A DNA stretch of 64,000 bases, from the NCBI GenBank assembly GCA_965199855.1, contig OZ241326.1:2816001-2880000 (forward strand), in the 5' to 3' direction. Source of the DNA: a bacterium (lineage in GTDB: Bacteria > UBA8248). Shown in pieces: positions 51,817 through 56,292 of this stretch (positions within the stretch are counted from its first letter, which is position 1; every line of letters starts with the position of its first letter). A program made the position numbers and the translations under genes. The notes under the pieces were generated by a model, which was not told the origin of the DNA, did not search any database, and saw only the letters and a program-made list of their open reading frames with translations.

Positions 51817-53145
51817 ATGAACGCCGCGGACTTCAGAACCTGGCTCGCGCATCTCGAGGAAAGCGGGCGGCTGAGGCGCGTCGCCCGCAAGGTCGCCCTG
51901 CGCCACGAGGTCGCCGCCCTCTCGCGGAAGGCGGACGGCGAAGCCGCGCTCCTCTTCGAGAAAACCGACGGCGCGCCGATGCCCGTCGCCGCCAACGTCG
52001 CCTGCCGGAGGTCGTGGTACGCAGAAACCATGGGGGTCGCGCCCGAGGCGCTGCTGCCCGAGCTTCAGCGCAGGCAGGAAATCAGGCTCAAGCCCCGAGA
52101 GGCGTCCGACGCGCCGTTTCTCCACGAAGTCATCACGCGGGACATCGACGTCCGGCGCATCCTCCCCCTGCCCACCTACCACGAGCTGGACGGGGGGCCT
52201 TACGTCTCCGCCGGCGTCTTCATCGCGCGGGACCCGGACACAGGCGCAGGCAACGTCTCGATTCACAGGATGCACGCCCTGGAGCCGGACCTCTTCGGCC
52301 TGCTCGTCCTCCCGCGCCACCTGAAGGGCATGATGCGGCGCGCGGCCGAACGCGGGGAGGCGCTCCGCGCGGCCGTCTGCGTGGGGCTGGACCCCCTGCT
52401 CCTCATGGCGAGCCAGCTGGTGCTCGCCCCGGGAGAGGACGAGCTGGAGGCGGCGGGCGGGCTTAGCGGCCGCGCCGTGGAAACGGCGCCCGCCCCCTGG
52501 TCGGGCATTCCCGTCCCCGCGGGGGCGGAAATCGTCATCGAGGGGGAGATTCCCCCGGCAGAGCGCAGGCGGGAGGGGCCCTTCGGCGAGTTTCCGCGCT
52601 ACTACGGCCCGGCGGCGGAGCGCGAGGTGTTCCGGGTGAAGTCCGTCGCCATGCGGGAGCGCCCGGTGTTCTACTCCATCCTGGCGGCGGGCTGCGACCA
52701 TCTGCTCATGGGCGCGATTCCGAGGGAGGCGGCGCTCCTGCGCGACCTTCAGAAGGCGGTTCCCTCCGTCACCGACGCGGCTCTCCCCCTCTCCGGGGCG
52801 GGCCGCTTCCACTGCGTGATCCAGATGCGCAAGGCAAACGAGGGGGAGCCCAAAAGCGCGCTCATGGCCGCGCTCGCCGCCCACTACGACGTGAAGCGCG
52901 CCGTCTGCGTGGATCACGACATCGACGCTCACGACCCCGCGCAGGTCGATTGGGCGCTGGCGACGCGCTTTCAGGCGGACGCGGATTCGTTCATCGTCCC
53001 CGGCGCCTGGGGCAGCCGCCTCGACCCCTCCGCCAGCGAGGGCGTGACCGCCAAGATGGGCATGGACGCCACCGCGCCCCTGGGCGGGCTGGAGGGCGCC
53101 TTCCGCCCCCTGAGAATTCCGGGCGCCGAGGACGCGGCGTTCTAG
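51817..53145 (+). CDS. UbiD-family (prFMN-dependent) decarboxylase
   Basis: DGGPYV, NVSIHRM, AEIVIEG, EGPFGEF, VD.DID, WALATRFQ, LDPS, KMGMDAT. Confidence 0.9.
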   Translation: MNAADFRTWLAHLEESGRLRRVARKVALRHEVAALSRKADGEAALLFEKTDGAPMPVAANVACRRSWYAETMGVAPEALLPELQRRQEIRLKPREASDAPFLHEVITRDIDVRRILPLPTYHELDGGPYVSAGVFIARDPDTGAGNVSIHRMHALEPDLFGLLVLPRHLKGMMRRAAERGEALRAAVCVGLDPLLLMASQLVLAPGEDELEAAGGLSGRAVETAPAPWSGIPVPAGAEIVIEGEIPPAERRREGPFGEFPRYYGPAAEREVFRVKSVAMRERPVFYSILAAGCDHLLMGAIPREAALLRDLQKAVPSVTDAALPLSGAGRFHCVIQMRKANEGEPKSALMAALAAHYDVKRAVCVDHDIDAHDPAQVDWALATRFQADADSFIVPGAWGSRLDPSASEGVTAKMGMDATAPLGGLEGAFRPLRIPGAEDAAF

Positions 53146-53240
53146 ACGCGGGGGAGATTTCGCGGAGGATTGAAAGAGGCGGCCGTTTCGCAGGGGCGGT
53201 TCGGAACCCGCCCTTTCAAGGACGACGGAGCGGCGAGGCG

Positions 53241-53262
53241 CGTCATTCCGGCGGCAATCCAG
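53241..53262 (+). repeat. Internally deleted CGTC-tagged repeat copy
   Basis: cgtcattccggcggcaatccag keeps both ends of the 28-mer but lacks the centre. Confidence 0.7.
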
Positions 53263-53271
53263 CCGAGCGCG

Positions 53272-53299
53272 CGTCATTCCGGCGAAAGCCGGAATCCAG
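53272..53299 (+). repeat. CGTC-tagged palindromic repeat, left arm
   Basis: cgtcattccggcgaaagccggaatccag, containing the hairpin attccggc-gaaa-gccggaat. Confidence 0.9.
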
Positions 53300-53300
53300 C

Positions 53301-53588
53301 TCAGGCGAGTTCCGCCAGCAAATCGCGCCATGCCGGATTGTCTTTTTCAATCAGCGCGAGCTTCCACGCCCGTTTCCAACTTTTGATGTTCTTTTCACGG
53401 GTGATCGCGCTTTCCATCGTTTCGTGGCTTTCATACCAGACCAGTCTGTGGACGCCATAGCGCCTCGTGAAGCCTTCGATCGAATGATTCTTGTGCTGTT
53501 GGACGCGCCGAAGGAGATTGGAAGTGACGCCGACATAGAGCGTCCCGTTGCGCTTGTTCGCGAGAATATAGACGCAAGGCTCCTTCAT
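53301..53588 (-). CDS. Stand-alone GIY-YIG nuclease (UPF0213/YhbQ-like)
   Basis: Start re-set to MKEPCVYIL. VYIL...LYVGVT.NL.RRV.QH...FT..Y...LVWYE...AITREK.IK.WKR.WK..LIE..NP.W.DL. Confidence 0.92.
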   Translation of the reverse strand: MKEPCVYILANKRNGTLYVGVTSNLLRRVQQHKNHSIEGFTRRYGVHRLVWYESHETMESAITREKNIKSWKRAWKLALIEKDNPAWRDLLAELA

Positions 53589-53605
53589 GCGTCCGGGCAA
53601 TTCCC

Positions 53606-53633
53606 CTGGATTCCGGCTTTCGCCGGAATGACG
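53606..53633 (-). repeat. CGTC-tagged palindromic repeat, right arm
   Basis: ctggattccggctttcgccggaatgacg is the exact reverse complement of 53272-53299. Confidence 0.9.
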
Positions 53634-53796
53634 GCTTGGGACGGCTCCTGAATCCACCAGTCCCGAAATGGAATCCGCCAGTCCCGGCAATGAAAGCGAT
53701 GGTCAACCGCTTCCCTGCCAAGCGGAATGGCGGGGCGATACCGGCTTCTCCGGTCTCTATCAGCGTCCGCGAGCCCGCTGTCCAGAGCCTTCGGGA

Positions 53797-53824
53797 CGTC
53801 GTTCCGGCGAAAGCCGGAATCCAG
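53797..53824 (+). repeat. CGTC-tagged palindromic repeat, additional copy
   Basis: cgtcgttccggcgaaagccggaatccag, one mismatch to 53272-53299. Confidence 0.85.
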
Positions 53825-53938
53825 CGTCTTTTTCGTCGGCTCCGGCTCGCGGCTTCCACCGCCACGGCGAAGGGAAGCGAAAAGCCTCCTGGCTCGGCGG
53901 GGCGCGTCATCGCCCCGGACAGCGAGGGCGATTCCGCT

Positions 53939-54901
53939 TCATCCCAGATTCAGATGCGGCAGAACCTCGCGCGTGAACCGCTCCAGCTGGCCCGCCTGAT
54001 CCCGGTGGGTGAAGCGAAGCGATACGTGCCGGGCGCCCGCCTCGATGAAGGCGTTGACGCGCTCTATCAGCGCCTCCGCCGGGCCGTAGATGCCCCACTT
54101 CTCGATGGAATCGCCCCAGAAGGGCGCGTAGTAGTAGTCGAGCAGGAACGCCTCGGCGTTCCGCATGGCGGATTCCCTGTCGTCGTCGATGCAGGTCGTC
54201 ATATACCACGCGGGGGTTCCGGGCTCGCGTCCGTTCTCGCGGGCGAGGCGGACGATCCTCCCCCAGGTTTCCCTGAATTCCTCGGGCGTCACGCGGTTGG
54301 GAAACCAGCCGTCCCCGTAGAGGGCGACCCTCCGCCAGGCGGTCTCCACCGTGGCCGAGGCTATCCACATGGGCACGGTCTTCTGGATGGGCCTGTGCGC
54401 CAGCGTGACGCCGCGCACATGATAATACCGACCCTCGAAGGTCACGCTCTCCTCCGTCCAGAGCCTGCGCATGAGCGTCATGTGCTCCTGCATGTAGAAC
54501 ATGCGCTTTCGGAAGGGAACGCCCAGGGTCTCGAACTCGTGGACGCACTCCTCGGGCTTGGGCGGGCCGATGCCGACGCCCAGAATCACGCGCCCGCCCG
54601 AGAGGACGTCCAGCGTCGCCACCTGATAGGCGAGAAAAACGGGGTCGCGCAGGCAGGGGAGGAAGACGGCGGTGCCGAGCTTCACGCGCTTCGTCCGCGC
54701 GGCGACGGCGGAGAGCACGGCCAAGGCCTCGAGCCGGGGCTTCGCCAGGACGGAATCGCCCACGAACACCGAATCGTAGCCCATGTCCTCCGCGCGCTCG
54801 GCCAGGTCGATGACGGGCGCCGCGTCCGGCGCGCCGCCGCTCCAGAGCAGCGCCCCGCGCGTGGGGAGCAGCACGCCGAGCCTTACCCTTCTCTCGCTCA
54901 T
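53939..54901 (-). CDS. LLM-class oxidoreductase
   Basis: Start re-set to MSERRVRLG. LLPTRG, GYDSVFVGDS, LGTAV, SGGRVILGVG, GDGW. Confidence 0.88.
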   Translation of the reverse strand: MSERRVRLGVLLPTRGALLWSGGAPDAAPVIDLAERAEDMGYDSVFVGDSVLAKPRLEALAVLSAVAARTKRVKLGTAVFLPCLRDPVFLAYQVATLDVLSGGRVILGVGIGPPKPEECVHEFETLGVPFRKRMFYMQEHMTLMRRLWTEESVTFEGRYYHVRGVTLAHRPIQKTVPMWIASATVETAWRRVALYGDGWFPNRVTPEEFRETWGRIVRLARENGREPGTPAWYMTTCIDDDRESAMRNAEAFLLDYYYAPFWGDSIEKWGIYGPAEALIERVNAFIEAGARHVSLRFTHRDQAGQLERFTREVLPHLNLG

Positions 54902-56292
54902 TCCGAAGCCGGGAGGCGGACGCCCGCGCTCTCCAGGATGCCGCGCACGCGCGCGCGCCGCTCCTCGGGAATATGGAGCCGCTCGGCGAAGTCGCGGCCC
55001 GAGGGCTTCGTGGCGTCCACGCCGACCTTCGTGAGGGTATGATCCTCCGGGTCGGAGGTCGGGTCGAGAATCGCCCCCATCGCCCCGTGAATGAAGTTGA
55101 TGTCGCGCTCCGCGCGCGTTCTCGTGAGAACCGCCCAGGCCACGTCCGAGAGATTGAAGATGTCCACGTCCTCGTCCACCACCACCACGCACTTGCAGTA
55201 GAACTCGGCTCCCAGCGCGGCCATGATGGCCTGCTGCGGCTGCCCCTCCGCCGTCTTCTCCATCCGGACGATGGCCAGAAGCGCCCCCGCCGTGTTCGAG
55301 GGGACGTGCACGGCCGAGACGCCGGGCAGGTTGCGCCGGAGGACGTTCAGGATTTCCGCCTCCCGGCTCACGCAGGAGATGAGGATGTGATCCGCCGACA
55401 TCCCCGAGGCCACGCTGTGGAGCATGGCGTCCCCCCGCATCCGCGCGCGCTTCACGACGAACACGTTCTGCGTGCTGCGGTAGGAGGCGTAGCCCGTGAA
55501 CTCGCTGAAGGGGCCCTCGGGCTCGCGCTCGCCCGCGAGAATCTCGCCCTCGAGCACGATTTCCGCCTCCGCCGGCGCCTCGAGCGCCCCCGTCCCGCAT
55601 CTGGCAACGCGGTAGGGTTCGCCGAACAGGGCGCCGATGATCTCGTATTTCCGCACCCCCGGCGGGTAGTGCCAGGCCATCGAGCCCATGTAGTGCGCCG
55701 GATGAACGCCGATGACGATGGCCGCCGGCAGGGGCTCGCCCGCCTCCTCGGCCTTCCTGTGAAAGTGATACATCCGCCGCCTCGAGTGCAGGGAGAGGCC
55801 GAGCCGGTTCCTCCCCTTGAGCTGGAGGCGGTGAAAGCCCGTGGTGTCCACGCCCGTCTCGGGGTCGCGCGCCACGATCTGCCCCGCCGTGATGTAGGGG
55901 GCCGCGTCCACGGGAAAATGAAGGGGGATGGGGAGCTTCTCCAGGTCCACCTCGTCCCCTTCGAGGACGACCTCGCGCCAGGGCGCCTCCTCCACCACCT
56001 CCACGGGCTGGTAGTTCTGGCAGCGCTCCCTGTAGGCCGCGGGCAGGTCGCCCGGCGCCACGCCGAGGCACGCCGCCAGGAGCTTCCGGTTGGCCGCCGT
56101 GTTCGTGACGACCGAGCCGGCGAAGCCCTCCACGCGCTCGAAGAGGAGGACGGGGTATCTGCCCGCGCGCTCGAACTCGAAGACGGCGGGGGTGATGTCC
56201 TCCCTGGAGACGGGCTCGCGGACGCGGACGAACTCCTCGGGGTGGTCCCTCTCCACCATCGCCAGAAAGCCGCGCAGGCTCTGGTCGGCCAC
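54898..56292 (-). CDS. UbiD-family decarboxylase
   Basis: SLRGFL, DAAPYIT, GFHRL, AEIVLEG, EGPFSEFTGY, VVDEDVD, LDP, KVGVDATKP. Confidence 0.9.
   Translation of the reverse strand: MADQSLRGFLAMVERDHPEEFVRVREPVSREDITPAVFEFERAGRYPVLLFERVEGFAGSVVTNTAANRKLLAACLGVAPGDLPAAYRERCQNYQPVEVVEEAPWREVVLEGDEVDLEKLPIPLHFPVDAAPYITAGQIVARDPETGVDTTGFHRLQLKGRNRLGLSLHSRRRMYHFHRKAEEAGEPLPAAIVIGVHPAHYMGSMAWHYPPGVRKYEIIGALFGEPYRVARCGTGALEAPAEAEIVLEGEILAGEREPEGPFSEFTGYASYRSTQNVFVVKRARMRGDAMLHSVASGMSADHILISCVSREAEILNVLRRNLPGVSAVHVPSNTAGALLAIVRMEKTAEGQPQQAIMAALGAEFYCKCVVVVDEDVDIFNLSDVAWAVLTRTRAERDINFIHGAMGAILDPTSDPEDHTLTKVGVDATKPSGRDFAERLHIPEERRARVRGILESAGVRLPASE

Follow-up and report, generated by a model that had tools for sequence, protein, structure and literature searches.

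A small gene for a GIY-YIG nuclease has a copy of a hairpin repeat on each side, the two in inverted orientation, and the locus raises the question of whether enzyme and repeat belong together and whether such a unit serves the cell or its own spread. An earlier note on this DNA had proposed a system analogous to REP/RAYT, in which the nuclease recognises or nicks the tagged hairpins and spreads them or itself. The window analysed is a stretch of 64,000 nucleotides, to which positions refer unless another scope is given; the host genome is closed, with a size of 3.04 Mb and 67% G+C.

The gene, called ssn here, occupies 53301 to 53588 on the minus strand, stop codon included, and was identified by translation, by Pfam and by homology to a protein of Neisseria gonorrhoeae; its frame of 288 nt encodes 95 residues and a stop. 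Two NTS/SRM hairpins, recognised from their inverted pairing, their fit to the SRM motif and their fold, bracket it. The first (53272 to 53299) runs forward on the plus strand and lies 1 nt past the stop codon; the second (53606 to 53633, minus strand) has CGTC first on the strand of the gene and lies 17 nt upstream of the ATG. The two 28-nt arms form an inverted pair with 100% complementarity. When folded as single-stranded DNA, both gave an 8-bp stem with a GAAA loop (−9 kcal/mol) and left the CGTC head, which points outward, and the CCAG tail unpaired. A repeat search returned two further copies on the plus strand. One (53797 to 53824) has a single mismatch (A to G at position 5) and folds at −10.4 kcal/mol; at that position it does not fit the published SRM motif, and it was not returned by the SRM pattern search of the locus. 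The other (53241 to 53262) is decayed, with a 6-nt internal deletion and one mismatch; its stem is lost and its fold is no better than that of shuffled sequences (z −0.96).

The cassette of hairpin, ssn and hairpin measures 362 bp and has a GC content of 55.8% (53.8% in ssn), against 71.9% and 68.4% in the flanking genes; GC3 is 0.69 in ssn versus 0.91 and 0.87 in those genes. The neighbours are convergent and encode a UbiD-like decarboxylase (51817 to 53145, plus strand) and a luciferase-like monooxygenase (53939 to 54979, minus strand). No direct repeat adjoins the two outer ends of the cassette, so that there is no target-site duplication. On all these points, from the exact inverted pair with GAAA loops and outward tags to the two copies nearby, the lower GC content, the convergent neighbours and the missing duplication, the earlier note had described the locus correctly.

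Some features of the surroundings are recorded here in their own right. UbiD-family decarboxylase paralogues (51817 to 53145 and 54898 to 56292) lie on either side of the luciferase-like monooxygenase gene, and a gene for a CoA-transferase is found farther left of this group. A degenerate GTAG-type palindrome is present at 53189 to 53217, just left of the hairpins. Upstream of ssn, between two hairpins, a 16-nt direct repeat (53650 to 53665 and 53671 to 53686) is 94% alike in its two copies, which are 21 nt apart from start to start. In the interval 53100 to 53990, no promoter-like sites were found by scan, and one terminator-like site was found versus 1.3 expected.

The Ssn protein matched the Pfam GIY-YIG profile (PF01541) with an E value of 1.2e-19 and 70.8 bits over residues 4 to 76. 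No second domain was found in the 95 residues by profile search with Pfam and NCBIfam. An alternative frame of 129 residues starts at a TTG, and its extra residues are encoded by the hairpin only; homologues begin to align at residues 1 to 3 of the 95-residue protein. The gene is single-copy and the sole strong GIY-YIG match in the genome, the other match to PF01541 being inside a frame of 993 residues. A 94-residue homologue from N. gonorrhoeae is 64% identical to Ssn (59/92, no gaps, E 5e-46). It has Tyr6, Tyr17 and Glu64, and in the gap-free alignment these fall on Tyr7, Tyr18 and Glu65 of Ssn, in agreement with the catalytic residues that the earlier note had considered intact. The protein compared is that of N. 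gonorrhoeae, which has the length and the residue numbering published for SsnA of Neisseria meningitidis. The gonococcal gene has hairpins on both sides as well, facing inward. Two N. gonorrhoeae records of 2.17 Mb that are filed among plasmids (NZ_CP119140.1 and NZ_CP119142.1) are chromosomes, judging by their size.

Among solved structures, the sole match to Ssn was a distant UPF0213 protein (1zg2, E 3.6e-4). GIY-YIG homing endonucleases join a nuclease domain to a DNA-binding domain, and their genes lie within an intron or intein. This identity was ruled out for Ssn, which has no second domain and whose gene sits between genes; with the NCBIfam model for group I intron endonucleases, Ssn scored 22.9 bits, below the cut-off of 56.05. 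Homologues 65–70% identical to Ssn were found in Endozoicomonas ascidiicola, Methylocucumis oryzae, Dyella mobilis and Novosphingobium resinovorum. For these four species, Supplementary Data 4 of Chenal et al. (PMC11893778) gives an SsnA homologue of more than 60% identity with a hit to cd10448; two of the four homologues were found here in a different assembly from that of the paper.

A protein and hairpins of this kind have been described together (Chenal et al., Nat Commun 2025;16:2388; PMC11893778). In that article, the Neisseria Transformation Sequence (NTS) is a 28-nt hairpin with a CGTC head, and SsnA of N. meningitidis is a single-domain GIY-YIG protein of 94 residues that requires the NTS hairpin to be single-stranded for binding; it cleaves the forward strand only, a few nucleotides upstream of the CGTC tag. 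Cleavage was abolished by the mutations Y6A, Y17A and E64A, and activity of the Neisseria enzyme was abolished when the palindrome was changed and the hairpin kept. Three more homologues cut at their own hairpins, which brings the members shown by experiment to four. Among ssnA homologues across bacteria, 71% are flanked by at least one such hairpin and 42% on both sides. Membership of the family was defined there by an E value below 1e-10 to SsnA and by the CDD family cd10448, and the sole in vivo role shown is an effect of five-fold size on transformation with NTS-bearing DNA. The same hairpins had been named CGTC-1 repeats, dRS3 in Neisseria, and in that work they were concluded to be without a dedicated transposase (Di Nocera, De Gregorio and Rocco, BMC Genomics 2013;14:522; PMC3733652). 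A literature search found no later study of the Ssn family.

Both flanking 28-mers match the SRM search motif of Chenal et al., and they differ from the NTS consensus by a single, compensated stem pair. The locus combines a single domain, homology, the catalytic residues and flanking hairpins that recur genome-wide, as in Ssn systems, with the CGTC head, the 8-bp stem, the 4-nt loop and the short unpaired CCA tail of CGTC-1 palindromes. Judged by sequence, gene and hairpins very probably represent a site-specific single-strand DNA nuclease belonging to the Ssn family and the NTS/SRM hairpins that are cognate to it, which are of the CGTC-1 class of REP-like repeats. The locus is a further example of the pairing published in 2025 and not a novel type of element. 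What the earlier note had supposed of a GIY-YIG nuclease that recognises and cuts the hairpins stands, with four members of the family behind it; the locus is not an undescribed analogue of REP/RAYT, because the partnership of nuclease and hairpin was shown by experiment by Chenal et al. (2025; PMC11893778). Identity with REP/RAYT (a REPtron) was rejected as well: the protein is GIY-YIG and not HUH/Y1, and the tag is CGTC and not GTAG.

The 95-residue protein would most likely work as its four tested homologues do. On single-stranded DNA it would bind the hairpin, with recognition of the stem, the GTC that precedes it and the C that follows, and it would use Tyr7, Tyr18 and Glu65 to cleave the bound strand a few nucleotides away, on the 5′ side of CGTC. 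About 120 such sites would be offered across the genome, almost all of them between genes. Because both forward copies point away from the gene, one cut per strand is predicted, immediately beyond each end of the cassette. From the 64% identity and the conserved catalytic residues, we strongly infer that Ssn cleaves single-stranded DNA on the 5′ side of its own hairpins. Its exact specificity is not simply transferable from the Neisseria enzyme, because one stem pair is altered here and the sequence of the palindrome mattered there. Such cutting may serve the cell by trimming single strands that enter it or become exposed, in the manner known from transformation in Neisseria, or it may serve to spread the cassette and its hairpins.

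A genome-wide count of the 28-mer, suggested by the earlier note, showed that it recurs throughout the genome. With up to 5 mismatches, 122 copies were counted in the whole genome versus none for the reversed pattern, and with up to 3 mismatches 114 versus none for the backwards control; the copies are not due to chance. The SRM motif occurred 129 times, versus 26 to 35 times in three first-order simulated genomes. The commonest form of the hairpin has a GAAG loop (52 copies), and the GAAA form that flanks ssn has five exact copies. Over the 122 copies, conservation was 90–100% within the 28-mer and about 40–60% outside it; in 14 copies, a stem pair was altered on both sides with the pairing kept. 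By gene calls that were crude, 8 of the 122 lay inside genes, versus 73% of random 28-mers. Tag-to-tag pairs within 150 nt, with the tags pointing inward, numbered 22 (examples are C1:472693-472844 and 1990577-1990728). A conserved spacer of 95–97 nt and conserved outer flanks were found in 14 of these, and others had a spacer of 112–122 nt that encloses a GTAG palindrome. Because of these conserved spacers and outer flanks and the enclosed GTAG palindromes, the hairpins are regarded as parts of larger mosaics, similar to NIMEs and BIMEs.

The genome also holds a RAYT-like gene, which served as an internal control. It encodes about 180 residues, is the one match to Y1_Tnp in the genome (24.5 bits) and lies outside the window (C1:2895300-2897800); an HUH motif and a tyrosine motif are recognisable in it. 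It is bracketed by GTAG-headed palindromes, and a third copy is inserted in frame inside the gene (790-828, 1277-1315 and 1642-1677 within that interval). No CGTC hairpin was found within 3 kb of it with up to 6 mismatches allowed. The genome therefore has two families of repeats, GTAG palindromes and CGTC hairpins, and each brackets a single-copy gene of its own, the RAYT-like gene and ssn, respectively.

The association of gene and hairpin was followed in the 80 closest homologues, taken from one genome per species, 62–79% identical and labelled as at least nine phyla. An SRM lay within 150 nt of the gene in 56 of the 80, and in 24 there was none. The density was 3.99 per kb near the gene versus 0.045 per kb beyond 500 nt, an enrichment of about 89-fold, and the expectation of the earlier note that the flanks of homologues would be enriched in such hairpins was confirmed. 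Within the same 150 nt, a forward copy was found upstream in 35 loci, a reverse copy downstream in 34 and both in 17. When the hairpins were labelled by stem and placed on the protein tree, 24 changes were needed versus a mean of 30.3 in 1000 shuffles, none of which was as low; for the two main stems, there were 5 changes versus 11.4 in shuffles. The covariation of repeat and protein tree foreseen by the earlier note was found in this sense, that the stem label clusters; co-evolution of specificity does not follow from it, because the hairpins are physically linked to the gene and the two are shared among related genomes.

These counts bear on whether gene and hairpins are connected at all. 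The hairpins might be ordinary REP-like elements that terminate transcription or stabilise mRNA and that the RAYT of the genome perhaps moves, and the gene might lie by chance in a repeat-rich gap. The mixing of hairpins with GTAG palindromes in mosaic clusters agrees with such an origin, and so does the gap itself, which is a hot spot: it measures 793 nt here versus 35–722 nt in nine loci of relatives that have both flanking genes, three of which hold hairpins and no gene. However, the roughly 89-fold density beside the gene is drawn from homologues of many lineages, the RAYT-like gene has only GTAG palindromes at its flanks, and four homologues cut at their own hairpins by experiment (PMC11893778). 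A chance neighbourhood is for these reasons highly improbable, and the cognate pair of nuclease and hairpin is retained in what follows.

The distribution of ssn was determined in 22 genomes of the same genus. The flanking genes were present in all 22, and ssn lay between them in none. A homologue of ssn at no more than 76% identity was found in 10 of the 22, and the nearest relative (G001) has none. The cassette was inserted at this site and is present at other places in related genomes; it is a compositionally foreign insertion of 362 bp between two convergent genes. These comparisons establish the insertion and do not point to the enzyme that moved it. A syntenic locus inherited vertically, which the earlier note had named as evidence against its reading, was not what these genomes showed. 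Nine cassettes at other sites in the genus align from exactly 53272 to 53634–53644, that is, to 1–11 nt past the right hairpin, and from these sharp boundaries the shared unit is taken to be hairpin, gene and hairpin. Alleles without the cassette, also foreseen by the earlier note, were found insofar as the flanks lack ssn in all 22 genomes; the exact junction could not be read. In comparison with G001, whose flanking genes are 93% and 90% identical, no exact empty-site junction was obtained, and only the stretch of the GTAG palindrome was alignable. This stretch, at about 53155 to 53198 around the palindrome at 53189 to 53217, is the sole part of the gap that still aligns with G001. No clean junction was found at another cassette site either (G010 and G012 versus G006), where it was blurred by other palindromes.

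Such a distribution invites the reading of the earlier note, an autonomous mobile cassette, in which Ssn would nick the hairpin ends in single-stranded DNA and so move the cassette and gene-less hairpin derivatives. The model for it is TnpA of IS200/IS605, and the same has been proposed for RAYT with REPs. The absence of the cassette from this site in all 22 genomes with the gene elsewhere in 10, the sharp boundary that nine copies share at the outermost base of the left hairpin (53272), and the foreign base composition all agree with it, as does the presence of close homologues (62–79% identity) whose records bear the labels of nine phyla or more. Against this, a GIY-YIG nuclease hydrolyses DNA, and we know of no strand-joining step for it. 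No report of transposition was found in the literature for any member of the Ssn family. Neither a target-site duplication nor a clean empty-site junction was obtained, and ssn is single-copy in the genome. The orientation of the hairpins showed no replication-strand bias over the whole genome (53 versus 69, p 0.17). The arrangement of the ends speaks both ways: by nearest hairpin, forward-gene-reverse was preferred in the 80 homologues (15 loci versus 1 with the opposite layout), but the opposite layout was found in six cassettes of the same genus and in N. gonorrhoeae, so that the ends are not fixed. Mobility has been raised before, in a Discussion that likens NTS-ssnA-NTS to insertion sequences and to REP/RAYT and leaves movement as a hypothesis (Chenal et al., PMC11893778). 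On balance, we consider an autonomous mobile cassette rather unlikely.

The numbers of hairpins in the genus bear on the same reading. They ranged from 0 to 327, with a median of 139 in genomes with the gene (n = 11) versus 57 in genomes without it (n = 12), and these higher numbers where the gene is present agree with a mobile cassette; the p value of 0.0006 for this comparison overstates the case, because the genomes are related and hence not independent. The gene is lacking in all five genomes that have no more than 10 hairpins, and one genome without ssn (G011, 93% complete) has 134 hairpins. In a sister genome (G020), eight gene-less hairpin pairs share the hairpins only and not the spacers, and because the spacers are unlike they are not simple deletion derivatives of a cassette. 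The hairpins of G020 occur mostly as outward-facing pairs, about 107–127 nt from start to start, with the spacing kept and the sequences of spacers and flanks unlike.

Contigs from four public runs, belonging to four studies, carried the cassette at the same site and broke at the hairpins. No credible joint without the cassette was seen in contigs of the four runs; contigs of this kind drop rare variants. Two low-depth contigs of run X8 that join hairpins, with 7–9 letters between them and sides of 27–29, were set aside as most likely hairpin pairs from elsewhere. A contig of the same run (depth 38.6) has a 2-nt insertion in ssn at 53545, near codon 15, which would shift the frame; this suggests that the gene is dispensable, and ssn may be decaying in the population of that run. 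The constancy of the site, with no convincing joined form, counts against an autonomous mobile cassette. Were the cassette nonetheless to mobilise itself, it would be an element of a new mechanistic class. The 95-residue hydrolase would cut the hairpins at its own ends in single-stranded DNA, the transfer would be finished by repair or replication of the host, and the hundred or so hairpins, single or in pairs, would descend from the cassette as non-autonomous derivatives; we hold this extended form to be doubtful. If true, it would give the CGTC superfamily the mobilising enzyme said to be missing from it and explain the spread across phyla.

The same constancy across the four runs agrees with a purely domesticated function. 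The enzyme would then trim DNA at the hairpins during natural transformation, as in N. meningitidis, or wherever else single strands are exposed; the cell would retain the hairpins for recognition, and mobility would belong to the past. In its favour, no in vivo role other than an effect on transformation has been shown for the family (Chenal et al., PMC11893778). Homologues of ComEC and DprA are encoded in the genome; their presence says little, because matches were also obtained for ComEC in 10 and for DprA in 11 of 14 control genomes, E. coli included. The patchiness of ssn within the genus (10 of 22 genomes) and its frameshift in one run argue against a function of this kind. We give a purely domesticated role somewhat less than an even chance.

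Whether it moves or serves the cell, the Ssn cassette enlarges by one natural pair of nuclease and hairpin a family that attracts interest as a source of tools for single-strand DNA, and the pair differs from the known ones in a swapped stem base pair and in its preferred loop. It is a clear case of a cassette insertion that differs between relatives, which bears on whether such nucleases spread their own repeats. Existing knowledge of the Ssn family is left unchanged by the locus.

Set beside known systems, the locus resembles REP/REPIN-RAYT units (REPtrons) in having a single-copy enzyme gene between inverted copies of a hairpin repeat that occurs genome-wide, and in both RAYT and Ssn systems the hairpin is recognised as single-stranded DNA. 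Unlike RAYT, the enzyme is a GIY-YIG hydrolase and not an HUH/Y1 transposase, and the tag is CGTC and not GTAG; we know of no covalent intermediate or strand transfer for a GIY-YIG enzyme. With IS200/IS605, the locus shares a small gene set between subterminal hairpins, which are read when the DNA is single-stranded (PMC11893778), whereas it has no tyrosine transposase and no replication-strand bias, and the orientation of the hairpins around the gene is variable. Like CGTC-1/dRS3 repeats, the hairpins have a CGTC head, an 8-bp stem starting with A-T pairs, a 4-nt loop and an unpaired CCA tail; they likewise occur mostly as head-to-head dimers (22 inward pairs here) and coexist with GTAG repeats. 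In contrast to the conclusion drawn for those repeats, that no dedicated enzyme exists (PMC3733652), the work of 2025 gives the CGTC repeats a partner, and the pairing is seen again here. From the SsnA/NTS system, the locus differs in one swapped stem pair (CCGG/CCGG here versus CCCG/CGGG), in the commonest loop of the genome (GAAG), in hairpins that face outward where those of N. gonorrhoeae face inward, and in a host from an uncultured lineage outside the 29 example genomes of the paper (PMC11893778). In all else it follows SsnA and the NTS: a single-domain GIY-YIG protein of 94–95 residues with the same catalytic residues and 64% identity (to the N. gonorrhoeae protein), hairpins with a CGTC head, an 8-bp stem, a 4-nt loop and a CCAG tail that flank the gene, and more than 100 further copies between genes.
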